A stretch of DNA of 64,000 nt, taken from IMG/VR virus record IMGVR_UViG_3300037722_000745, positions 160,001 to 224,000 of that record; one strand, written 5' to 3'. The position numbers and the translations under genes are program-made. Below, in pieces: positions 2 through 57,375 of this stretch. This DNA comes from a virus. Its lineage: Duplodnaviria > Caudoviricetes. The first letter of the stretch is position 1. The number at the start of each line of letters is the position of its first letter. The notes below the pieces were generated by a model, which saw nothing but the letters and a program-made list of their open reading frames with translations, was not told the DNA's origin and did not search any database.

Positions 2-3000
2 TAGAGCTGAACGGATCAAAGTATCGTTCTGCGTATTCGGATCATGCGTGCGGATCTCATCCACCTCAGACTTGCTGATCTCGTCCCTAACCTTGCGGAT
101 AGCCTTTTCCCGAATTGCGTCCGTCAGATCCGAAACTGCCTTGTCAACCGGGTCCTCCTCCACCTCTGGACTCGATTCAGTCTCTGGTTCGAAGGTGTCT
201 GTGAAATCCTCTTCCTGCCCCAGCGTCCAACGAGCTGCCCTCGACATGTGACTAGGGTCCACTACAGGTGTCGGCATCAAAAACGCCTTGTGGAGCTGCC
301 TTTCCACACCCTCAGGCACGCCATGCGTGATGATGTTCCTGAGAACGGCTCCTTTGAACGCTGGGTTGGCGACCCATGACGCCTCGATGAAACGGACCGA
401 GTTAGGATCCGTATAGTGACCGCAATTGTGCGATGCTAGTCCTTCGACCAAATAGGACTCATCCTGATCTACGGCCAGATTGTACACTTTCCCGTCATAG
501 GTCCGACGACTCAAACCTCTGATGGAGTACAACATGTAACCACGAAACGACCTCCATCTAGGGCCGGTCCCTCTTTCGTGATCAACGTCGAAGCCAAAGA
601 ACTGCGTTGTCTCGTCGGAAGGTTGGAAATGCAGTTCATGCCTAGGTTTAAGACCATCGATTCCTACACAGGCATCCCCATTCACGACTTGAGCTATCTC
701 AACAGACCGTCCTTCGTAGACCACTTGCCTACGTGTCCAAAACCCGCATCGTGCAGACACCAATTGCATTTGAGACACCAACGTCTCAGACACAGACGAC
801 CCGTAATGTCGTGCTACTCGATCAACTGATCCATCCCCATGAACGTAGGCTTTTAGAATTTGCCTTTGAAGCCTAACAGGCCAGTACAATGCTTCTTCTG
901 ATAGTCGTTTGCTATCTGAGTATTCCCCAGCGTGTCGATAGAACCAATCCGCTGCTGACGTATTGTTGTACGCAACAACGAGCTTGAGGCCACCTTCCGT
1001 TCTCTTGTATAGGTGAACCCGCGGTTCACATCGAGCCCGAGCGTTGTACTGAGTCAGTTTGGCGAGATGTTTACGGCCCGAATTGGCTTCATAGTTAGTT
1101 GTCCTCTCCGACAAAGCTTCGTCTTGAAGTGAACACCACACTCGGGCACGGCTTCTTCTACGACCTTTGACATCCAACCTTTCCCCTGGCTCTAGGGGCC
1201 TAGAAGACACAATCCCTTTACGCGCATAACGGCGAAGAATCGCACCTACATACGACGACGGGAAAATCTGTTTTAAATCACACGTCAGTTTGGGCGTTTT
1301 CAAAGCGTTGAGTAACGAATCAGTTGCATTGCCTCTCCCATGCGAACGCCGCTTTGGTGGAGAGGTCAAACGTTGCTCTGGCGTGAAGCATTTCTCCAAC
1401 AAACCAGCCAACCGGTGCACCACTTCATTCTCATCCTCCCCGTTCAGGGTGAACTGCACACCGCGGCGCTGACCCTTATGCTTGATGAAGGACCCTTCCG
1501 CTAGGAACCAGCCCAACAACTCTGCGCGATCCTCATCTACATCAGAAACTGAGACCCTTTGTTCTGTGAGTATGGGCATGCCAAGCACATCCCCAGGACG
1601 TAGATCTTCAGCTTTCTTGAACACGAACTCAGGAGGGGACAAGGACACCACCTGATTAGGGTTGTGCCCTTTCAAATAACGTCTCCAGAATCTAGCCTTA
1701 CCGAAGTCTTTTGGCCTTGGTAATTTACCTCCACACCCGCAAGCACACTCGTCCCGTACAGACAGTACCCAGAATGGATGTTCTGGCGTAACTTGCAATG
1801 TTTGGGGCACCCCCTCTGCCTTCACGGCGATCAAAGGACCCCGATACGATCGCTCAAACACCCGTGTGACCTCTCGGGGCACACCCTTATGAGTCACGAC
1901 CATGTCCCCGACTTGGAGGGTTTCTACCCCCCTACGGCTCCCATCACTCATCACAACCCGGGATCCGGAAACGAAACAAAGCTCAGCTACTTTTCGCTTG
2001 ATCCCCAGACCGTCGATGAACTCACTGCCCTTGAAGTAACGCACACAAGGGCACAAATGGGTTTCATCCTCCGCAACGTTGCCGCACTTGGTGCAGATCG
2101 TGGACGAGGTTGTGCAGCCCATCGAGAGCGTTCCAAGTTTGCCGCTCTTGATCGCCCGAATAAGCGGGGCGTGCTTGAGATCGTTCGCTATCAGAATGTC
2201 GATGTAGACCGAATCCCCCACATCGCGAGCCGCTGCATCGATGATCCTGCCCTTTGACAGCTCAGGGATCTGAACGTGCTCCACATAAGACTGAGCCCCA
2301 ATGAAAGTCTTGAAGCTCGAGAGCAGCAACTTCCGCTCAAAGGAATCGCAGTTATGAACAGAGACGCCGTTAGCCAAATAGGAGTTGTCCCCTGCAACCT
2401 CCAAGTTGTACACAGGCCCTGAGTAAGAGAATCTATCAATCTTCTCTACCATCTGAAGATGATAGCCGTTCAAAAACCGTAACTCAGGTACGCGCTGAAC
2501 TCCGCCGTTGGCCTCTAACGACGCACGGTATCCAGGTTCGTAGTAAGTACCTTCGACAAGATTCTCTAACCACCCTCCACCACAAGCTACCTGCCAACTG
2601 ACACACCTCTTTGAAGGATCGCTCTCAATACGAACTGATCCGTCCTCTGATCGCACCCTAGACCGACCATCGGTCTCACTTCTAGTTAGATGTGACGACA
2701 CCCCCAAACGGTGGAGCATCATCTGCATCTGATTAGCCATAGATCGACTAGCTGTGGACCCAGTGAGACGAAAATCAGTCTTGGATGTAGTGAAACTCCC
2801 GTCTCCCTCAAACCACCCTTGCAACAGTTCACGTTGCACCTCTACAGGCGCCCGAAGAAGATCGGAGTGGAGCCTCTTAGTCTTCGACTCACCTGGGACC
2901 CAATGAGAAAAGAACTGAACGAGATCCCTATTGACCGCCGTGTCTACATGGATCCCGTTGTCATTAGAATGAGGGTGGATCTTAGCCTCGACCCCAAACT

Positions 3001-47144: not shown

Positions 47145-48101
47145 CTACTGGGCGATAGTTAGCATTGTCGTCTCCACAAGAGTCCTCTTGGACCGAGACG
47201 AACCCTTTACATCTACATCTATCTGGCACAACCGTCCCATATACCCCGCCAAGGATTTGAAGCTGTGCTTACGAGCCACAGGAGCCAACAAATTCTTGTA
47301 TGGCCAGAGCTTCGTTCCCGTGAGGACTGCAATCTCTTCAGGCTCTACACCTCTATCCTGCAAAGCTCGGATAGAGGCTGTCTTCTCAACTTGCCTCATC
47401 AACGATGACACCACGGGGACAAGACAGGTGTCCCCTTCCCCGGCGTACAAGTACGAGAAGAGGCGCATAGCCTTTTTGAGGTCCTTCGCCATTACGGCTT
47501 CCGCCACCGCATAAGGCGTGGCGTCAGGTGTCGGGCTGACCACCTCCGCCACATGCTTTTTTTGGATCGAACAATCCTGCCCTACATACAACGAGAGCTT
47601 CTTCAGCTCGTTCGACAACCGATAGAGGTCCGAACCAACGTATTGGTACAGCAAGGACGCCACGTCCTTCCCCAAGGAGACCTTAAGTCGCGTAGCCTCC
47701 CCTCTAATGAAGTCAAGATACTTACCGTCTTCCCACGGCTTGTACTTACGTCGCTCGACTTTCTTACCCCTCTTCGCCGCCTCAGCCCAAACGTCAGGCA
47801 ACTTCGCACTACGGACAACCGCGATCACCACAACAGACTTATCCGACGCATCACGCTCTGAAATAAACTGACGAAGAGCTTCCTCTCCCTTCACCTTCTG
47901 AGCGTTCTCAACAACGACCGTATGAGGCTCCTGGAAGCCCTCACACATGTCCACCAAGACCGTGTCCTTTAGCCCATCCTCGGCATCAACCTTGATGACG
48001 ATTCGATCCTTTTTGAGCACAGACTCGACGTCCCGATCTAGAAAGAAGTCATCCTCTCCAAACAAGACGATAAAGGGCCTGAATATTGACTTTGCCGCCA
48101 T
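47145..48101 (-). CDS. holA: DNA polymerase III delta subunit
   Basis: VLFGEDDFF, YVGSDLYRLSNELKKLSLY, C-terminal collar region. Confidence 0.8.
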   Translation of the reverse strand: MAAKSIFRPFIVLFGEDDFFLDRDVESVLKKDRIVIKVDAEDGLKDTVLVDMCEGFQEPHTVVVENAQKVKGEEALRQFISERDASDKSVVVIAVVRSAKLPDVWAEAAKRGKKVERRKYKPWEDGKYLDFIRGEATRLKVSLGKDVASLLYQYVGSDLYRLSNELKKLSLYVGQDCSIQKKHVAEVVSPTPDATPYAVAEAVMAKDLKKAMRLFSYLYAGEGDTCLVPVVSSLMRQVEKTASIRALQDRGVEPEEIAVLTGTKLWPYKNLLAPVARKHSFKSLAGYMGRLCQIDVDVKGSSRSKRTLVETTMLTIAQ

Positions 48102-48110
48102 CCGAGCACA

Positions 48111-49136
48111 CTACAGGAGGAAAGACTCCACGAGGCGAGTCTTGAAATGGAAGGAGAGGTTAAGCGGTGTGGAACGTCTCTGTTGGAGAAGCTCACGTGT
48201 CTTCTGAGAGACTGTAAACCAGGACCTGACGCTTGCCTTGAGTCCGAGATCTTTCAGCTCGTCAAGGCAGTCAGCGTTCAGTGCTCGCATGGGATCTACA
48301 CGAACCATAAGGACATCATGAGAGATCTGCTCCAGAAATTTCAGTGCTAGAGGTAAGTCCCGATCCATCGCGTCTACTGCCGAAAAAAGTGCGGACCAGT
48401 CCCTTTGAACAGCTAGCTGTAGCACTCGTAGGACTTGGTCCCTAAGGGCTATCTTCCCTGAGTTCCAATATCCAACCGCTCGACCAACTGAACCTTCTCC
48501 CAATCGCGCACAGATTAGAGCTTTAGCGGTCTCCTCACCCTCCCCCACGGATTCAACAACTACTGATGAAACGAAGTCGTCAGGTAGGGGTCCGTACCGC
48601 ACGAGACCGCAACGTGATCGAAGAGTGGGAAGAACACGTTCCCGCTCTTCCGCTATCAAAAAAAACCTTGCACTCTCTGGCGGCTCTTCCAACGTCTTCA
48701 AAAAGGCGTCCGCCGCCGGGACCGTGAAAAGATCCGCACCGTCCACAATGAAACATCGTACGCTACCGAGACCGGGCCTGACCTGAGCGTCCGCAATGAG
48801 CTTGCGTACGCGATCTACTCCGATGTCCTTTTCGTCAGCTGATACGACGATGAGATCCGGATGCTGACCTCGCATGAGGTCATAGCAAGAAGGGCACGGG
48901 CACCCTACCTCACGGCTCCCAACGCAGAACAACTCCTGGACAGCCTTCTGAACGGAAAACCGTCGACCAACACCAGAGGGCCCCACCAGAAGTAGAGGTG
49001 TCTCAAGACTCCCTTCTACGAACCTCCGAAGGAACTTCGTCCCCTCCTCTTGGTGTTTCACTTCCGCTAGCATCAGACTCGAGGAAACCAACGGATCGCT
49101 GGGGAGGATCCACTGGGACGAACTGAAGGACAGCAT
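48111..49136 (-). CDS. holB: DNA polymerase III delta-prime subunit
   Basis: LLVGPSGVG, CPCPSC..GQHPDL, AFLKTLEEPP, LPTLRSRC; probable start near 49073. Confidence 0.88.
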   Translation of the reverse strand: MLSFSSSQWILPSDPLVSSSLMLAEVKHQEEGTKFLRRFVEGSLETPLLLVGPSGVGRRFSVQKAVQELFCVGSREVGCPCPSCYDLMRGQHPDLIVVSADEKDIGVDRVRKLIADAQVRPGLGSVRCFIVDGADLFTVPAADAFLKTLEEPPESARFFLIAEERERVLPTLRSRCGLVRYGPLPDDFVSSVVVESVGEGEETAKALICARLGEGSVGRAVGYWNSGKIALRDQVLRVLQLAVQRDWSALFSAVDAMDRDLPLALKFLEQISHDVLMVRVDPMRALNADCLDELKDLGLKASVRSWFTVSQKTRELLQQRRSTPLNLSFHFKTRLVESFLL

Positions 49137-49287
49137 GGTAGTGCTGTCCGCAACGCTGACAGGCGTACCGATGGACCTCTACACCAGTAGATTCCAACCT
49201 GCCCTCACACTTCATGCAACGGGTTACGATCATAGAGAGATTGGACCGCCAACAGAAACGACCTGTGTTCGGTGGCACTTGACACAC
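49003..49287 (-). CDS. Small Zn-ribbon protein (probable start about 49233)
   Basis: CMKC...CQRC. Confidence 0.55.
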   Translation of the reverse strand: MCQVPPNTGRFCWRSNLSMIVTRCMKCEGRLESTGVEVHRYACQRCGQHYHAVLQFVPVDPPQRSVGFLESDASGSETPRGGDEVPSEVRRRES

Positions 49288-49436
49288 TGATAGACTCGAG
49301 ATCCGCTTCCTGCCGAAGTGATCTCAATCGAGGTTATGGAGTCACAGTCTTCATTCTTGCACCGCATGTTCACTTCCACGGAAGGCTTAGAGTCCTTGCC
49401 AAGTCCGGGGTTCAAAGAAGTCGGGTCAATGGTCAT
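49230..49436 (-). CDS. Small Zn-ribbon protein
   Basis: CKNEDC...CVKC. Confidence 0.6.
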   Translation of the reverse strand: MTIDPTSLNPGLGKDSKPSVEVNMRCKNEDCDSITSIEITSAGSGSRVYQCVKCHRTQVVSVGGPISL

Positions 49437-49438
49437 CG

Positions 49439-50023
49439 TTAGAACCTCGTAGGGTAGTCAACAGGGAACAACTCTTGCAACACAAGCACAAGGCGATTGA
49501 AGAACATATCCTCCTGGGTGAGCGTACCCTCTCGCTTCTCCGAAGGGATGAGATGTGAGGCGTCCGGGATCCCCCGAGAAGGTTTGAAAGGGAGAGACGG
49601 GCTCTCTCCCGCAGATAACATCGTCAGCAATCCTTGGATCTTCTGGTACTCGTCATACCGCAACCTATCGAGGAAGGACCTCAACCCGGCCGAAGGCTTT
49701 TCTGGAGGAGGCTGCATCACCCGATTGGGTTGAGGGGATACCACTGCCGATGGAGGGTTGCCTGGTGGAATGACGGGCTGAAAAACCGTCGTGCTGTACC
49801 GAAAGAACGGAAAGATCTTTCTCCAATCGTCCCCTCGAACTACCACGGTGTAGGACCTTGGCCGGACAAACTCCACGAATGAAGTGTCTCGTAGCTTACC
49901 TGACCGGACCTGAGCCCGACCCTTCGCAGCGTCTACGATGGCTTGTGCCAAACGGGGCACATCCGACCTTCGAACATGGGTAGGCCGGCTCCCCCCTATT
50001 CGCTGAAGTCGCGAATCCATCAC
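49439..50023 (-). CDS. Hypothetical protein
   Basis: 194 aa ORF downstream of groEL. Confidence 0.55.
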   Translation of the reverse strand: MMDSRLQRIGGSRPTHVRRSDVPRLAQAIVDAAKGRAQVRSGKLRDTSFVEFVRPRSYTVVVRGDDWRKIFPFFRYSTTVFQPVIPPGNPPSAVVSPQPNRVMQPPPEKPSAGLRSFLDRLRYDEYQKIQGLLTMLSAGESPSLPFKPSRGIPDASHLIPSEKREGTLTQEDMFFNRLVLVLQELFPVDYPTRF

Positions 50024-50045
50024 CTAGTGACGGCTCACAAAGACC

Positions 50046-52038
<1,993 letters not shown>

Positions 52039-52045
<7 letters not shown>

Positions 52046-52148
52046 TCCCCACCGGCTACACATGGGCGACCAGCACGCCCGCGGAAGAGACGAACTCCGG
52101 GTGTGATGGTAGCACTGTGGCGAGTCATGTCCAGCACTCCCCACGCCC
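52039..52148 (-). CRISPR. Left part of degenerate type I-E-like repeat cluster
   Basis: Half repeat 52131-52148 (interrupted by the insertion), a 7-bp-deleted repeat 52070-52092 and a partial repeat 52039-52052. Confidence 0.6.
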
Positions 52149-52213
52149 GGGTAGTGGGGTGAATCGGATTCCGCCCACCCGGCCGGCCCCCTCCGGCCCT
52201 ACGCTGTGGTCCG

Positions 52214-52558
52214 ATGGGCATTCTACGCGAACGCGTGGTCCGCGGCAGGACCCGCCAAGACCGCGAGCCGCGCGGCTTCCAGCTCACCTCAACCGAGGCC
52301 GCCAACGTCAAGGTTGCCCTGCTCCATTTGCGGGCCCAGCACGGGTGCTGGCGCGAGGTGGCCCGCGTCATGGGTTGCACGAAGAGGGCCCTGGAGAAGG
52401 CCGCAGAGACCCGGCGGCGACCGTCCCCGGGCTTGGCGCTCCACGTGGCCCGAGCGCTGGGCTTGCCCGTGGAGGCGATGCTCACCGGGGCGCGGTCGGA
52501 GCCAGGGAGCTGCCCGATGTGTGGGCGGGCGAGTAGCAGGGCTCAACTGTCTAGGTAG
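52214..52558 (+). CDS. XRE-type HTH protein with C-terminal CPMC
   Basis: WREVARVMGCTKRALEKA...PSPGLALHVARALGLPVEAML. Confidence 0.7.
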   Translation: MGILRERVVRGRTRQDREPRGFQLTSTEAANVKVALLHLRAQHGCWREVARVMGCTKRALEKAAETRRRPSPGLALHVARALGLPVEAMLTGARSEPGSCPMCGRASSRAQLSR

Positions 52559-52819
52559 CGATGGAAGTTGCTCGGATGAATGTAGAGCCTAGCCAGCCAT
52601 GACCTGAGCACGCTCGGCATGATTCTCGTGTCGTCGTCCTCTTCGATCGGCAACACGAGTTTGATCTCCTCGTACTGTCTGTCTGTGGAGATCTCTCACA
52701 ACGCACTCCTCGCCGTTGATCATGCGCGTTGCAGACGTGACGGTCACGCCGTGCTCACGGCACACTTTCTCGACGAACTCCCGGACCGTAATCGACGGCC
52801 CGAATGGGAATGCAGGCAT
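52543..52819 (-). pseudogene. Frameshifted HicA-like toxin
   Basis: (ACAG)3 tract at 52675-52686; removing one unit joins MPAF..DLHRQ to YEEIKLVLP..PSVLRSWLARLYI, giving a 90 aa protein downstream of the HicB-like gene. Confidence 0.55.
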
Positions 52820-52830
52820 GACGGCCTATT

Positions 52831-53178
52831 CTAGGCCGATAGTCTCAATTTGCTAGCCGTTGCGTGGATGATCCACGGCGGCGGAACATCGGGTGCCACG
52901 GTTGGCCCCAGCAAATCCACGGCGCCGCCCAATGGGCGAGCCTCCCTGAACTTCTCAAAATAGTGGCTGGGTGCTCTCGGGACGTCTTGCATTGGGTCCT
53001 TGCCCAGCTCGATATTGGCAGCCGCTTGGTTGACAAATGCGCGCTGCCAAGATGCAAGCACGGCGTCCAAAGAAGTTCCCTGTGCCGCGACATCAAACTC
53101 TAGACACTGAGCAACCCACGTGCCTTCTTCAAGAAGGATGACAATGCTCAAGTCCTCAAACTTCCAGCTCTTTTGCAT
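52831..53178 (-). CDS. HicB-like antitoxin
   Basis: IVILLEEGTWVAQCLEFDVAAQGTSLDAV, the HicB N-terminal partial RNase H pattern. Confidence 0.7.
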   Translation of the reverse strand: MQKSWKFEDLSIVILLEEGTWVAQCLEFDVAAQGTSLDAVLASWQRAFVNQAAANIELGKDPMQDVPRAPSHYFEKFREARPLGGAVDLLGPTVAPDVPPPWIIHATASKLRLSA

Positions 53179-53356
53179 AGTCGCGCGGTTTTCTTGACAA
53201 GAGCGAGAGCGTTCGCCCTAGTGCGTCTGTAATAGTAGGGGCCACGGCGCTCAGCGGCAAGCGCCGCTAGCATGCCGAGACCGTATGCGCAAACCATGCA
53301 CAGCCGCAAAATAAGCGAAAAAGCGCGTGCCCCTGAACATTCTGCGAGTTCTAAGG

Positions 53357-53551
53357 CTAGCTTGTCGCTCGCTCCAAAAGCACCGATCTCGCCCACTGGG
53401 TTACGGGCTGTCCCGCCCTCGCGGCGGCTTCCGTGATAGCCGCCCGCTCTCCGTCGCTCAGCCTGATCGCGAAGACCGACTTCGCAGCGCCCTTCGGCAA
53501 CGGCGGCCTGCCGATCCTCGCCTTGGGCGGTGACCCAGAGTCAACATTTGT
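53357..53551 (-). CDS. Small ribbon-helix-helix protein (not in ORF track)
   Basis: Hand translation GRPPLPKGAAKSVFAIRLSDGERAAITEAAARAGQPVTQWARSVLLERATS*; start uncertain (in-frame TTG at 53500). Confidence 0.6.
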   Translation of the reverse strand, partial: TNVDSGSPPKARIGRPPLPKGAAKSVFAIRLSDGERAAITEAAARAGQPVTQWARSVLLERATS

Positions 53552-53597
53552 TTAGAGTGTTGTCTAAATTTAGCCCTCGTGGTAATCGACTCTTGGT

Positions 53598-54827
53598 ATG
53601 ACGCCTCCCGGGTTTTCTAATCCTTTCCGTCCTGGGGCAGGTCACCAGCCTCCTTACCTGGCTGGTCGGTCGCGGGAAACTAATGAATTCAAAATCTTAC
53701 TGGATCAGGACGTGATTCTGAACAGTCTGGTCCTGACGGGGCTTCGGGGGACCGGAAAGACAGTCCTGCTAGATACCTTCAAGCCTATCGCGATCTCCTC
53801 AAAGTGGGTGTGGGTGGGAGCGGACCTCTCTGAGTCGACTAGCATCAGTGAAGAACGGATTGTGAAGAGGCTTCTAGCTGACCTCGCGATCGTCACCGCT
53901 AGCATCCAGATCAGCGAACACCAGCGCAAGCAGATCGGCTTCGGTGCTGGCACGACAACGGTCCCAATCTGTCTCGACTATTCCGCGCTTGATGCGGTGT
54001 ACAAGGCCACTCCAGGATTGCCTGCCGATAAGCTGAAAGCCGTACTGCAGCTGGCGTGGTCAGCTCTCAAGCCGCTAGGACACCGAGGGATCGTCTTCGC
54101 CTACGATGAGGCGCAGAACCTCTCAGACCATGCTGCGAAAGAGGAGTTTCCACTGTCGCTCCTCCTCGACGTATTCCAGTCGCTTCAGAAGCATCAGCTC
54201 CCATTCCTGCTTACCCTGGTTGGGCTACCAACCTTGTTTCCGAAGTTGGTGGAGGCGCGCACTTTCGCCGAGCGCATGTTCCGGGTTGTCTTTCTCGACA
54301 GGCTTGGGCGCCAGGATTGTAGGGACGCCATCCTGAAACCAGTCCAAGACGCTCAATGCCCCATCCAACTCGACGACCCGTCCGCCGAACACATCATAGA
54401 CATTTCCGGCTGCTACCCGTACTTCATCCAGTTCATCTGCCGAGAAGTCTATGACGCGTTCCTGCAAGGGCAGACACGGGTACCTGTTGACGAGATAACG
54501 CGAAAGCTCGACAGCGACTTCTTCGCCGGTAGGTGGTCGCGCGTCACCGACAGACAACGCGAGCTTCTCAAAGTAGTAGCCTCTCTGGAAAGCTCCGACG
54601 GCGAATTCATGGTGCAGGAGATCGCAGAGAAATCGAAAGAGCTGACTAAACCATTCAGTCCAAGCCACATCAACCAGATGCTAGTCACTCTCGCGAACAA
54701 CGGCATGATCAACAAGAACAGGCACGGGAAGTACTCCTTCGCAGTGCCTCTTCTTGGCCGCTTCATTCTGCGGCAGGCAACCGCTGACAGAGAGGAGGAC
54801 CCTGGAGGGCAACAGCTGCTCTTCTAG
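53598..54827 (+). CDS. AAA+/STAND-like ATPase with C-terminal winged helix
   Basis: NPFRPGAG..PPYLAGR, GLRGTGKT, Walker B YDEAQ, GYP-like CYPYFIQ, wHTH tail. Confidence 0.82.
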   Translation: MTPPGFSNPFRPGAGHQPPYLAGRSRETNEFKILLDQDVILNSLVLTGLRGTGKTVLLDTFKPIAISSKWVWVGADLSESTSISEERIVKRLLADLAIVTASIQISEHQRKQIGFGAGTTTVPICLDYSALDAVYKATPGLPADKLKAVLQLAWSALKPLGHRGIVFAYDEAQNLSDHAAKEEFPLSLLLDVFQSLQKHQLPFLLTLVGLPTLFPKLVEARTFAERMFRVVFLDRLGRQDCRDAILKPVQDAQCPIQLDDPSAEHIIDISGCYPYFIQFICREVYDAFLQGQTRVPVDEITRKLDSDFFAGRWSRVTDRQRELLKVVASLESSDGEFMVQEIAEKSKELTKPFSPSHINQMLVTLANNGMINKNRHGKYSFAVPLLGRFILRQATADREEDPGGQQLLF

Positions 54828-54852
54828 CCAGGAGCTACGGAATTGAAAGACT

Positions 54853-54949
54853 GGAGGGTGACCCGCGGTTGGACCGCTCAAGGGCTCTACATCCTGATCG
54901 GGCCCGGTGTTGCAGCTCCGGTGGGGTTCGAATCCCTCACCCTCCGCCA
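54853..54949 (+). tRNA. Non-canonical (9/3 or 8/4, allo-tRNA-like) tRNA, anticodon CUA, long variable arm
   Basis: GGAGGGTGA/TCACCCTCC acceptor helix, G discriminator plus CCA, T-loop TTCGAAT, D hairpin GCGG..CCGC, anticodon loop CT-CTA-CA (54885-54891). Confidence 0.7.
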
Positions 54950-55257
54950 CCATGATGCGTCTTGCTGCTGGCGTCCGCAAGGATGCTCGCCCGGACCGCC
55001 TCCGCAGCCCCCGTGACGGGCCCCAGCCCCAGCACCGCGAAGAACCGGCGCTTGGTGCCCGTGGTGGCCTCGCTCCACGCGTAGGCCCGGCGCGCCTTGG
55101 GGTGCCCGTCCAGCTCGAACACCTCGACGTCTCCCTCCCAGGCTGTCTCCCCCGTGGGGGCGCGCTCGACTACATGCACAGTCTCGACGTGGCGCGCGGC
55201 GCAGCCGTGAAGGTGCTTGATGGCTTCGAGCAAGGCGTCGGTTCCGGCGGGGTCCAT
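54937..55257 (-). CDS. Conserved-looking hypothetical protein, convergent with the tRNA
   Basis: HGC.A.HVETV..WEGDVEVFELDGHP.A.RAYAWS..RFFAVL; TAGGCT -10 lies 6 nt before the ATG (leaderless). Confidence 0.7.
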   Translation of the reverse strand: MDPAGTDALLEAIKHLHGCAARHVETVHVVERAPTGETAWEGDVEVFELDGHPKARRAYAWSEATTGTKRRFFAVLGLGPVTGAAEAVRASILADASSKTHHGGGG

Positions 55258-55324
55258 GCCGGAAGCCTAACCCGCCCGGCGGCCGTGCCAAGATCGGGGC
55301 GCCGATCAAATCACCCCACTACCC

Positions 55325-55403
55325 ACGCCCGCGGAAGAGACGCCTGAGAGCCCAGTTCCTTCACCTGCGCGGTCCAGCACTCCCCACGCCCGCGGAAGAG
55401 ACG
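55325..55403 (-). CRISPR. Right part of type I-E-like repeat cluster (intact repeat, spacer, half repeat; 61-bp period)
   Basis: Minus-strand repeat GTCTCTTCCGCGGGCGTGGGGAGTGCTGG (29 nt; stem-loop followed by an 8-nt handle); repeat ends at 55342 and 55403 are 61 bp apart. Confidence 0.7.
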
Positions 55404-55849
55404 TTGTCTTGCAGCCTCGCCTCGCAGGCTGCTCTGTACACAGCCACGTCTGCTTCCAGCCTATCGAAGCCTGCGTCCGCAACTTTCGCGAGCCATGGAT
55501 ACGTTCGTAGCAGGCGAAGAAACGCGAGCGCCGCACCCGACTCCTCTCCGCGCTTCCACCTTGCGATGGTGCGTGACGGAAGTTGAAACACGCGCTCAAT
55601 ATAGGCGTTGCTGAGCCCACAGGCATCAAGGTAGACCAGCATCGTTGGTATCGATGCCTTCTTTGAGCTATCCAGCGCTTCTTCAATCCTCGAATCGTTT
55701 ACGTCGGCGAAATCACCGCTTTCTCCGCACATTCGGCACCTCAGCTGCTGCATCTTCCACGAAACGGAAGGGCCATATGGGACAGCGATGTTCTCGCATC
55801 GATCGATCGGTTCGAGTTGGGTAGAACCGCATGCTGGGCACTGAGTCAT
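55361..55849 (-). CDS. MqsA-like antitoxin (Zn-finger + HTH), no cognate toxin seen
   Basis: CPACG...CRMCGE, then AYIERVFQLPSRTIARWKRG..AALAFLRLL; the last codons read through the I-E-like repeat. Confidence 0.75.
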   Translation of the reverse strand: MTQCPACGSTQLEPIDRCENIAVPYGPSVSWKMQQLRCRMCGESGDFADVNDSRIEEALDSSKKASIPTMLVYLDACGLSNAYIERVFQLPSRTIARWKRGEESGAALAFLRLLRTYPWLAKVADAGFDRLEADVAVYRAACEARLQDNVSSAGVGSAGPRR

Positions 55850-55971: not shown

Positions 55972-57375
55972 TCAATCCGCGCCCTTGAGGTTCGAGACCG
56001 GGTAAAGCCGGTGTTCAACTCTCGCAATCCCCTCCGCCTCTAGAACGGCGAGAACCGCGTCGAGATCCTTGTAGACGTGCCCGCACTCATCAAGCGGCGT
56101 CTTCTTGTGATTGCCCACGATCCCCTCGATCTGGACGCCGCCGAAGGTTCGCTTGACGCTCGCCATCTCGTTGTCGATTCGAGCCTGCTTGTGCCCCAGC
56201 CGGCGCTTCGCTTCTGAGCGGCCTAAGATCCGACCCGAACCGTGGTTCACCGAGCAGGCGGACTTGTAGGCCCCATCTCCCGGGAACAGGATCGCAGCAC
56301 CTTCGTACATCGAGCCCGGAATGAGGCACGGGTGACCCGTAGTCTCCCACGCCGTCCCTACCAGGTCAGGATGCCCTGCCGGAAAGGCTCGGGTTGCTCC
56401 CTTCCGATGCACGAAGCCCCGCTTGTGGGTCCCGTCGGGCAGCACAAGGGTCTCTTCCTGCACCAGGTTGTGGCTGATCTCGTAGTAGACTTCGAGGTCA
56501 GCGTTGAACACTTCCTGCGTCGCCTCTTGAACCCCCACCACGATCTGATGACGGTTCGCGACCGCGAAGTTGGCCGCCGAGTTGTGGTAAGCCCAGTACT
56601 CTCGACCAAGAGGCTCATCTATTCGAAGCCAGGAATCCTCTCGACGGTTCTTCGGTAACCCCCGGAGAGCGGCCCCTTCGTAGAAGAAGTGGTTCGCCGT
56701 CTGCCAACCGTAGCCCCGCGACCCACAGTGGACCATCACCCAAACCGACCCGTCATCTCGATCGACTTGCATCTCGATGAAGTGGTTGCCGCCACCCACG
56801 CTACCGAGCTGGTCGGACACCTTCGAGTAGGCTTTCTCGATGTGACTTAGATCCAACGTCTCCGGGATCGGGATGTACCGCCGCTCACAGAGCGCCTCGT
56901 TGATCCCCAAAGACTTGGCCCCATATCGAAGCACCTCGTCGACCTGACGAGAGCCCAGCCGCCTCATGAGGGCAGGCCGCTCGGACCCTACGCCGGTCGC
57001 CACCCGCTTCTCGACTTCCTCGACCCACTGCTGACGCTTGTGCCGACTCCGAACCGCCTTGGCTCCAAGGTTCACTTTCATGCAAAGAGCCCCGCACGAG
57101 ATGTCGTAGCCCGAGCCGCCCTGGATGATCGTGTCTTCAGTCACGATGACCGAGCCGACCGGCACGCCGTATCCCCTGTGGCAATCCGGCATCAGGTACG
57201 CCCCAATGACCCCCTCGTAGGACGCCCCGTTCGCGATCTGCTGCCAGACCGACTCTTCCGACGCCGCATAAAGGTCATCCGACAAAAAGGCATGAGCCTC
57301 CACCCGCATCTGCCCAACGCGGGGCAGCACGTAGTGATTGTCGCTGACCTTCTGAGCCTGGTACTTGAAAGACAT
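55972..57375 (-). CDS. rtcB: RNA-splicing ligase RtcB
   Basis: MPDCH.GYG.PVG, GYDISCG, GGGNHFIE, HCGSRG, SHN, HRKGAT, IPGSM, HGSGR, YKD. Confidence 0.95.
   Translation of the reverse strand: MSFKYQAQKVSDNHYVLPRVGQMRVEAHAFLSDDLYAASEESVWQQIANGASYEGVIGAYLMPDCHRGYGVPVGSVIVTEDTIIQGGSGYDISCGALCMKVNLGAKAVRSRHKRQQWVEEVEKRVATGVGSERPALMRRLGSRQVDEVLRYGAKSLGINEALCERRYIPIPETLDLSHIEKAYSKVSDQLGSVGGGNHFIEMQVDRDDGSVWVMVHCGSRGYGWQTANHFFYEGAALRGLPKNRREDSWLRIDEPLGREYWAYHNSAANFAVANRHQIVVGVQEATQEVFNADLEVYYEISHNLVQEETLVLPDGTHKRGFVHRKGATRAFPAGHPDLVGTAWETTGHPCLIPGSMYEGAAILFPGDGAYKSACSVNHGSGRILGRSEAKRRLGHKQARIDNEMASVKRTFGGVQIEGIVGNHKKTPLDECGHVYKDLDAVLAVLEAEGIARVEHRLYPVSNLKGAD

Follow-up and report, generated by a model that had tools for sequence, protein, structure and literature searches.

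INTRODUCTION

The classical serine-inserting amber suppressor of Escherichia coli, supD, is a tRNA-Ser in which the anticodon CGA has been mutated to CUA. Stop-reading anticodons also occur among the allo-tRNAs, which were first found as curated-out tRNA-Sec false positives and whose named hosts are Clostridia, Proteobacteria and Acidobacteria (PMC5389517). Natural allo-tRNAs with a 9-bp acceptor stem and a 3-bp T-stem (9/3) include species with the anticodon UUA (Mukai et al., 2017, NAR; PMC5389517). Versions of the 9/3 type given a CUA anticodon in the laboratory suppress amber codons in E. coli, a G73 variant inserting serine (PMC5389517), and a 9/3 allo-tRNA has been seen on the ribosome by cryo-electron microscopy (PMC9561287), so that decoding by a molecule of this shape is feasible. 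Recoded jumbo phages usually carry a suppressor tRNA with a CUA anticodon, Sup-CUA (PMC13037316). Here we describe a 97-nt allo-tRNA-like gene with the anticodon CUA in a 64,000-nt stretch of huge-phage DNA (the window), which comprises bases 160001–224000 of the 323-kb IMG/VR record IMGVR_UViG_3300037722_000745 (56 % GC, about 68 % complete).

Comparison with a small set of relatives confirms, far beyond chance as far as sequence can tell, that positions 54853–54949 of the window hold a real, conserved RNA gene of the allo-tRNA type that resembles a serine tRNA. The gene lies in a mobile cassette, next to a conserved gene of about 100 codons on the opposite strand, and we consider below what the RNA may do and for whom.

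RESULTS

Sequence and fold of the tRNA-like gene

The original prediction, which had been made from the window sequence alone, described a 97-nt fold with a 9-bp acceptor helix and a 3-bp T-stem (or 8/4), G73-CCA, a long variable arm (V-arm) and the anticodon loop CU-CUA-CA, and the sequence reads so. The nine acceptor pairs, G1–A9 with U85–C93, form without a mismatch. The T-stem (G72–G74 with C82–C84, GGG/CCC) closes the loop UUCGAAU, and the discriminator, G94 or G73 in tRNA numbering, is followed by a genomically encoded CCA. The D-arm consists of GCGGU/ACCGC closing UGG; the V-arm, of about 25 nt, has a six-position stem (CCGGUG/CUCCGG) with a single U.U mismatch; and the anticodon stem is made up of four regular pairs, a bulge and two further pairs, with a 7-nt loop (C-U-C-U-A-C-A) that presents the anticodon CUA followed by C37 and A38. 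An 8/4 pairing, in which G71.U85 replaces A9-U85, is as possible as the 9/3 pairing. A 7/5 reading was rejected, position 49 being U or A facing C65 in all members of the family described below. The family has the 12-bp acceptor branch of an allo-tRNA, whether 9/3 or 8/4, which together with the long V-arm and G73 bears out the class to which the gene had been assigned.

Over its last 26 nt, at the 3' end, the gene matches without a difference the T-arm and acceptor end of numerous canonical tRNA-Ser genes, which begin with 5' GGAGGGU, and on this ground it is of serine-tRNA descent. Its departures from those genes are coordinated: the replacement of U8 by G, which pairs with C65, and the loss of G at position 49 turn a 7/5 molecule into an 8/4 or 9/3 one.

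Standard detectors miss the gene. ARAGORN at default settings made no call at its position and the Rfam tRNA model RF00005 gave no match to it, even at E <= 10, whereas the Rfam tRNA-Sec model RF01852 aligned it end to end with 32.9 bits, under the gathering score of 47 (E-values 5.6e-5 local and 1.4e-5 across the whole 323-kb genome). The gene resembles the tRNA-Sec model without being a tRNA-Sec, and in this it is like the phage's own tRNA-Ser(CGA), which scores 35.4 bits on the tRNA-Sec model and 14.8 bits on the tRNA model. We know of no Rfam family for allo-tRNAs. At the 80 % threshold (-ps80) ARAGORN did call the gene (anticodon cta), a call that was discounted and carries no weight because the same setting gave 18 false calls, about 3 per kb, in an unrelated 6-kb locus.

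Other classes of tRNA were considered and rejected. In place of the U8 of a canonical bacterial tRNA (RF00005) the gene has a paired G8, and its position 37 is C. Compared with tRNA-Sec (selC) its branch is of 12 bp and not 13 bp (8/5), its anticodon is CUA and not UCA, and its score lies under the Rfam gathering cut-off. Its V-arm of about 25 nt stands against the 3-nt variable loop of tRNA-Pyl, and the 'Pyl' label given by ARAGORN mirrors the anticodon alone.

Relatives of the RNA and conservation of the fold

The lead to relatives was the opposite-strand gene, which encodes a protein of 106 amino acids (aa): one cluster of its homologs shares an odd C-terminal tail, and this tail is encoded by the complement of the RNA's acceptor strand. 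In two contigs, L108 and L109, a 98-nt homolog of the RNA has the same tail-to-tail placement relative to the 106-aa homolog; the DNA is 73.6 % identical to the window over 405 nt, the homology ending precisely at the 5' end of the RNA, and the RNA itself is 79 % identical to the window copy. A covariance model (R1) built from the window and L108/L109 RNAs and then used to search for the family found four more copies, namely L204 (another viral contig, 66 bits with R1), L206 (5'-truncated, in a viral contig) and a divergent pair, L175 and L176, in two Myxococcales metagenome-assembled genomes (MAGs; 38 bits). The 3' half of a further family gene lies at the end of the L112 contig. The relatives are from soil metagenome contigs, two other viral contigs and the two Myxococcales MAGs. 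When R1 was run on 151 sampled Myxococcota genomes, G026 alone scored, the remaining matches being ordinary tRNA-Ser and tRNA-Sec, and the tRNA-like family is therefore rare.

Other routes to relatives gave little. Exact patterns taken from the window's own acceptor and T-arm had no matches in viral, metagenome and genome contigs; a V-arm/T-arm pattern had the L108 contig as its sole match; and an anticodon-loop/T-loop pattern found 30 tRNAs in viral contigs, mostly unrelated, with L204 and L206 as the only members of the family. Searches by blastn against curated phages and plasmids returned a generic tRNA-Ser 3' end or nothing. No related RNA was found near homologs of the cassette's AAA ATPase (18 loci) or of the nearby RtcB ligase (32 loci), Cas12j yielded no relatives along this route, and 10 loci of closer 106-aa homologs together with 62 genomic loci held no copy beyond those listed.

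Window and L108 copies differ at 21 positions, nine of which fall in paired columns, and no pair is broken: there are four double compensations (acceptor pair 4, D-stem 14:24 and 17:21, and anticodon-stem 30:42), and one further change repairs a mismatch. When 21 random substitutions were simulated 200,000 times, every pair stayed unbroken in a fraction of 1e-5. With L204 and L206 added, standard pairs make up 97.1 % of the cells, and changes on both sides are seen in 9 of 28 pairs; none of 500 shuffles reached this, and sliding the structure by 1–3 columns left 0–1 such pairs, although this four-sequence alignment was partly fitted to the model, which somewhat favours the structure and to that extent weighs against our reading. 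In the acceptor helix, covariation is seen at pairs 4 and 7; pairs 8 and 9 do not vary and form in every member of the family. The D-stem has 5 bp, with covariation in three of its five pairs, and a loop of 3–5 nt with GG, so that the D-arm of the family resembles that of tRNA-Sec. A V-stem of 6–7 bp, with one compensatory pair, occurs in all members; the long V-arm and G73, which are SerRS elements, are thus shared by the family with the allo-tRNAs. Between L175 and L176 there are five differences in the long anticodon helix, each of them compatible with pairing. These patterns of substitution show the cloverleaf of the family, at the level of comparative sequence analysis, to be under purifying selection. 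The cloverleaf of the window copy lies about 10 kcal/mol above its minimum free energy (MFE) fold, the median for the phage's 42 tRNAs being 2.2; this thermodynamic case against it has little weight because the rod-like competing fold is not kept in the relatives, and the MFE folds of L108 and L204 retain most arms.

Besides acceptor pairs 8 and 9, G73, the GGG/CCC T-stem and U35-A36-C37-A38 are invariant in the family. The anticodon loop is YU-UUA-CA in L108, L204, L206 and the partial L112 gene, and CC-UUA-CA in L175 and L176, so that UUA is found in all relatives and CUA in the window copy alone. Because every relative has UUA, the window copy is taken to be an amber-specific derivative (U34 to C) of an ochre-type family; by this comparison the family is ancestrally ochre (UUA), and the window copy would read UAG only. 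In every member the weakest of the helices is that of the anticodon stem, which in the relatives has 3–4 pairs and an irregular extension. C37 and the bulged anticodon stem had been flagged at the outset as atypical; both are real and, since they are conserved across the family, are features and not signs of decay. In L175 (1501–1603, plus strand) and L176 (947–1049, minus strand) the T-loop is UUGGACU with G56 and the D-loop has C's without GG; these loops may form a swapped G19:C56 tertiary pair.

The convergent partner gene

The 106-aa protein has 572 homologs, and the window gene is intact against their alignment. At each of the seven loci, six of them outside the window, RNA and 106-aa homolog stand tail-to-tail, and two of these convergent copies came from the position-blind search of whole genomes with the model. 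The RNA overlaps or abuts the partner stop codon at four loci (window, L108/L109, L175 and L176); elsewhere the distance is 26 nt (L112), about 90 nt (L204) or about 720 nt (L206). In all elements its slot lies between the partner stop codon and the end of a cargo gene on the same strand as the RNA. The cargo gene upstream is never the same: the window has one for an AAA ATPase (26 nt away), L175 one for a protein of 265 aa and L176 one for an HTH-M78 protein. It is therefore the partner gene, and not the cargo, to which the RNA is linked. No such RNA lies close to the majority of the 572 homologs.

A confident AF2 model of the 106-aa protein (pLDDT 79.5) has an alpha-beta4-alpha arrangement; fold searches with it against PDB and AFDB clusters found its own family alone, and a feature search found unnamed clusters. 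Its closest homologs are from Myxococcales and Polyangiales MAGs, a hint that Myxococcota are the likely host of the phage. A tRNA-like element of a different kind occurs in a Mesorhizobium MAG (L139, approximately 2780–2885, plus strand), where it comes after a 106-aa homolog of the same orientation. Its acceptor has 7 bp and its T-arm is GGAGG/CCUCC, and it also has a long hairpin resembling a D-arm and, in its centre, a large one.

The cassette and its transposon family

The features of the cassette, which is 3.17 kb long (52150–55323), are listed in Table 1. The original prediction had placed the gene inside mobile cargo, and the perfect terminal repeats and target-site duplication around the cassette agree with this. 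When the cassette is removed with one copy of the duplication, the joined flanks restore a 32-nt repeat that is found intact at 55372–55403. Such junctions show, as read from the DNA, a clean transposition into a CRISPR-like repeat of the huge phage, and because the scars are perfect (13/13 in the repeats, 8/8 in the duplication) the insertion is recent, with no time for gene decay. The 32-nt repeat (GTCCAGCACTCCCCACGCCCGCGGAAGAGACG) occurs with a 61-bp period at 55311–55403 and 52037–52149, one copy being split by the cassette; an apparently degenerate left copy is the left half of this split repeat.

Table 1. Features of the cassette and its boundaries (window coordinates)
Feature	Position	Strand	Remarks
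Target-site duplication CACGCCCG, left copy	52142..52149		8 bp
Left terminal inverted repeat GGTAGTGGGGTGA	52150..52162	+	13 bp
HTH-like 114-aa gene	52214..52558	+	Just inside left repeat; weak HTH matches
Two small ORFs, 76 aa and 115 aa	52589..53178	-	Both TAG-ended; no family match
Small RHH protein, NikA/MbpA-like	53357..53500	-	
AAA_16 ATPase (phrog_6841)	53598..54827	+	Pfam and PHROGs matches; variable cargo
Allo-tRNA-like gene	54853..54949	+	9/3 or 8/4 acceptor/T branch; anticodon CUA, C37, A38, G73, encoded CCA
Conserved 106-aa gene	54937..55257	-	Convergent; overlaps last 13 nt of the RNA; first gene behind right terminal repeat
Right terminal inverted repeat TCACCCCACTACC	55311..55323	+	Perfect complement of left repeat, 13/13
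Target-site duplication CACGCCCG, right copy	55324..55331		8 bp, 8/8 match
ORF, open reading frame.

The cassette belongs with a group of larger elements. An end motif, GGTAGTGG..GGATTTGA, stands ahead of the 106-aa homolog in at least 12 bacterial and metagenomic loci, and the order in these related elements is end repeat, 106-aa gene, variable cargo on the opposite strand, a 280-aa DDE protein and a small RHH gene, the cargo being a PIN toxin with its partner, a P63C protein or nothing. The best match of the 280-aa protein is the IS1 transposase (transpos_IS1, E 3e-16), at 56–60 bits and thus under the curated cut-off of 100. The RHH gene, which in related elements comes after this IS1-like transposase, encodes in the cassette a protein 55–60 % identical to those of L074 and L077, and the HTH-like gene is 44 % identical to an L108 ORF behind the same repeat motif. 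No IS1-family DDE transposase or remnant was found in the cassette or in the phage contig, and the cassette is therefore non-autonomous. Since it retains the ends and the 106-aa, RHH and HTH-like genes of the transposon family, the carrier is, on this comparison, a transposase-less derivative of an IS1-like family found in Myxococcota. Terminal repeats with an 8–9 bp duplication, as seen here, are those of the IS1 family and of mobile insertion cassettes; the perfect short repeats beginning GGT, the 8-bp duplication and the carriage of passengers without a transposase are further likenesses to these two groups. Compared with classical IS1 the elements differ in the conserved gene of about 100 codons, the RHH gene, the variable cargo and the sub-threshold transposase match of the relatives.

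The TAG stop of the AAA_16 gene lies 26 nt upstream of the tRNA-like gene, and the two are probably co-transcribed. The ATPase is 56–67 % identical across viral contigs L018–L035, which range in GC content from 37 % to 63 %, a conservation unusually high for a solitary gene of such unassigned role. Contigs L108 and L109 do not differ over the partner gene, the RNA and the 60 nt upstream of it, and then diverge at L108:3438, where a further transposon end motif is followed by an HTH-like gene; the two contigs are the filled and the empty site of a second element beside the RNA gene.

The phage locus and its stop codons

The huge phage has 42 tRNAs by ARAGORN and a transfer-messenger RNA (tmRNA), the array lying just past the end of the window. 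The phage is Cas12j-bearing, and the genes near the tRNA-like gene include those for an RtcB ligase, for a Cpn60 chaperonin and for a protein of 718 aa that has a Cas12f1-like TNB domain. In the closest related phages (RtcB 81 % identical) RtcB, o157 and Cpn60 are adjacent and the cassette is absent, the window having about 3.8 kb extra among these genes. The order RtcB, o157, Cpn60, o194, o341, o318 (47145–51650 and 55972–57375 in the window) is kept in at least nine related huge-phage contigs, and several such contigs have tRNA arrays and a tmRNA upstream of RtcB. A 162-aa ORF on the minus strand (55361–55849), with a weak match to the MqsA antitoxin family (CxxCG_CxxCG_HTH, E 1e-5), lies outside the cassette and is likewise absent from the related phages; it is a second, separate insertion beside RtcB. 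The phage's tRNA-Ser(GGA) and tRNA-Ser(CGA) genes lie outside the window on the minus strand (C1:241937–242028 and C1:239512–239595). ARAGORN draws both with an 8-bp acceptor and a 4-bp T-stem, and both fail or nearly fail the Rfam tRNA model; from these drawings the phage has its own 8/4 serine tRNAs, of the kind that Mukai et al. reported in phages.

Stop codons were counted in a crude set of 371 phage ORFs, of which 192 end in TGA, 100 in TAG (about 27 %) and 79 in TAA. Coding density under genetic code 11 is 0.91, and allowing readthrough of TAG brought no gain, regional or otherwise. Extensions past TAG are no longer than those past TGA or TAA (p = 0.82), the long cases being neighbouring genes with their own starts. 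A release-factor gene and a SerRS gene were looked for in the phage contig and not found. TAG serves the phage as a normal stop and shows no sign of being recoded as in code 15, and because it is not recoded the tRNA-like RNA is a hitch-hiker and not a translation device of the phage.

The five cassette ORFs that the original prediction had named (HTH, HicB-like, frameshifted toxin, RHH and AAA) do end in TAG; the labels 'HicB-like' and 'toxin' found no backing in Pfam, NCBIfam or PADLOC. As to the enrichment of TAG that it had suggested, five of six cassette ORFs have this stop against 95/365 elsewhere (Fisher p = 0.006), in a post hoc comparison on a tiny sample. The difference in counts stands, but it concerns six ORFs, and at least two of their TAG stops are common to relatives without a CUA tRNA: TAG is also the stop of the HTH-like homolog of L108 and of the AAA homolog closest to that of the cassette, with no CUA tRNA nearby.

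DISCUSSION

The identity of the gene is well founded: it is a conserved RNA gene of the allo-tRNA type, with serine identity and a stop-reading anticodon, on an IS1-like element that jumped into the phage. As to its role, we propose that it would act as a weak, serine-inserting amber suppressor, a reading to which we assign a probability of about 0.5. The RNA would be transcribed with the upstream AAA gene and then processed like a tRNA. With G73, the long V-arm, the acceptor pairs G1-C72/G2-C71/A3-U70 and no G3:U70, it may be serylated by the SerRS of the host and delivered by EF-Tu. Decoding of UAG would be weak, because C37 is conserved and the anticodon stem is short and irregular, and low-level serine readthrough would be expected. 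Of the known serine-inserting suppressors, supD has in common with the gene G73, a long V-arm, an acceptor of the G1-C72/G2-C71/A3-U70 type and CUA, which predicts serine at UAG (textbook); it differs in its canonical 7/5 form, its A37 and regular anticodon stem, and in being a lab-mutated chromosomal gene, neither mobile nor a conserved suppressor.

Likeness to the published allo-tRNAs, judged by their described features, extends to the lengthened acceptor with a shortened T-stem, the long V-arm, G73, the compact tRNA-Sec-like D-arm, the sub-threshold tRNA-Sec match and the stop-reading anticodon as in the 9/3 UUA species, and also to the setting, near toxin–antitoxin-like (TA-like) genes and transposable elements in soil or sediment bacteria (PMC5389517). 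The window CUA, however, is natural, whereas that paper lists only UAA-reading species of the 9/3 type and its CUA versions were made in the laboratory; C37 is conserved and the anticodon stem is irregular in place of a clean 6 bp; the hosts are Myxococcota and phage contigs; and there is a fixed pairing with a gene of about 100 codons at an IS1-like end.

A number of observations count against this explanation. The family is tiny, consisting of four full sequences of one subfamily and two of another; no covariation separates 9/3 from 8/4; and the encoded CCA is confined to the window copy. Decoding tRNAs have a purine at position 37 almost without exception, so that the conserved C37 speaks against decoding here. 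The anticodon stem of every member has 3–4 regular pairs with a bulge or internal loop, and L175 and L176, with C33, the T-loop UUGGACU and an anticodon helix of about eight pairs, fit ribosomal decoding poorly. The conserved C37, the irregular stem and this odd subfamily argue for weak decoding or none. Furthermore, most of the published allo-tRNA(UAU) species linked to transposons or TA systems showed no activity in translation, and toxicity was seen with two (PMC5389517).

Another possibility, which we hold to be on the unlikely side, is that the RNA mimics a tRNA without decoding: it would retain the L-shape of a tRNA, while its conserved YUACA loop, with C37, would be a recognition site and not an anticodon. 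Such an RNA might work with the protein of about 100 aa or with the transposon, be it in regulation, in the manner of an antitoxin or decoy RNA, or by overlapping the 3' end of the partner mRNA in antisense. The invariance of C37 and A38, the replacement of U33 by C in L175 and L176, the weak or irregular anticodon stems of all members and the inactive and toxic allo-tRNA(UAU) would all fit, as would the strict tail-to-tail placement at seven loci and the use of the same slot by PIN-toxin pairs or a P63C gene in elements that lack the RNA. A mere binding site, however, needs fewer features than are present: G73, the V-arm, the 12-bp branch, the T-loop and the GG of the D-loop suit SerRS, EF-Tu and the ribosome, and the sole anticodon change seen (U34 to C) still reads a stop. 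Moreover, the partner occurs mostly without the RNA, and its predicted fold offers no hint of RNA binding. A related and doubtful suggestion is that RNA and protein form a two-part module of the IS1-like transposon family, in which the protein would bind, charge or use a stop-reading mimic with C37. If so, the module would control the element or its host, by readthrough-gated expression or as an RNA–protein toxin/antidote pair, and would add a new type to the accessory systems of transposons, one deliverable into phage genomes.

The suppressor reading must also be set against other explanations. That the window copy is a functionless passenger due to decay, the unexpressed and unused copy of a dead cassette from a family perhaps functional in bacteria, is in our view improbable. 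None of the related phages examined has the cassette, the cassette has no transposase, no promoter was recognized upstream of the tRNA-like gene, the window copy has the U.U mismatch in its V-stem and the largest gap between cloverleaf and MFE fold, and an efficient suppressor would extend about 27 % of the phage ORFs; yet all five helices are intact, CCA is encoded and the perfect scars point to an event too recent for decay, and this explanation concerns the usefulness of the RNA to the phage and not its identity. Integration at a tRNA-Ser gene, leaving an att-like recombination site or scar in place of an RNA gene, would account for the 3' 26 nt shared with many tRNA-Ser genes and for the position at the junction of conserved partner gene and variable cargo. 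A 3' att remnant would miss the 5' strand, as the truncated L206 copy does, whereas both halves of every helix are present and covarying; with no integrase and with the conservation of the anticodon loop left over, this is very improbable. Hardly credible, finally, is a phage suppressor tRNA by which TAG would be read as sense in late genes, after the fashion of Lak or crAss-like phages. Like the suppressors of Lak, crAss-like and jumbo phages, the gene has CUA as its anticodon and lies in a very large, tRNA-rich genome (PMC13037316), here with 42 tRNAs and a tmRNA, and Sup-CUA is usual in recoded jumbo phages. Unlike theirs, however, it is of non-canonical shape, was delivered by a transposon and lies outside the tRNA array, 10 kb from it and on the opposite strand, in a phage that has TAG as a normal stop (100/371 ORFs), a density of 0.91 under code 11, readthrough extensions that are not longer, and no release-factor gene in its contig.

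Allo-tRNAs have been the starting material for several genetic-code-expansion tools. The ochre ancestry of the family, the partner of about 100 aa at an IS1-like end and the clean transposition event had not been seen in the original prediction, and what this case adds is a naturally occurring amber (CUA) version of an allo-tRNA, from a small family in which compensatory evolution is clear and the unusual C37 never varies, together with a fixed genomic partner at the transposon end. The comparison also indicates Myxococcota as the likely host of this Cas12j-bearing phage. The jump of the element into a huge phage suggests that RNAs of the allo-tRNA type may be spread by phage, and the RNA with its partner provides a concrete gene pair for asking what allo-tRNAs do in nature.

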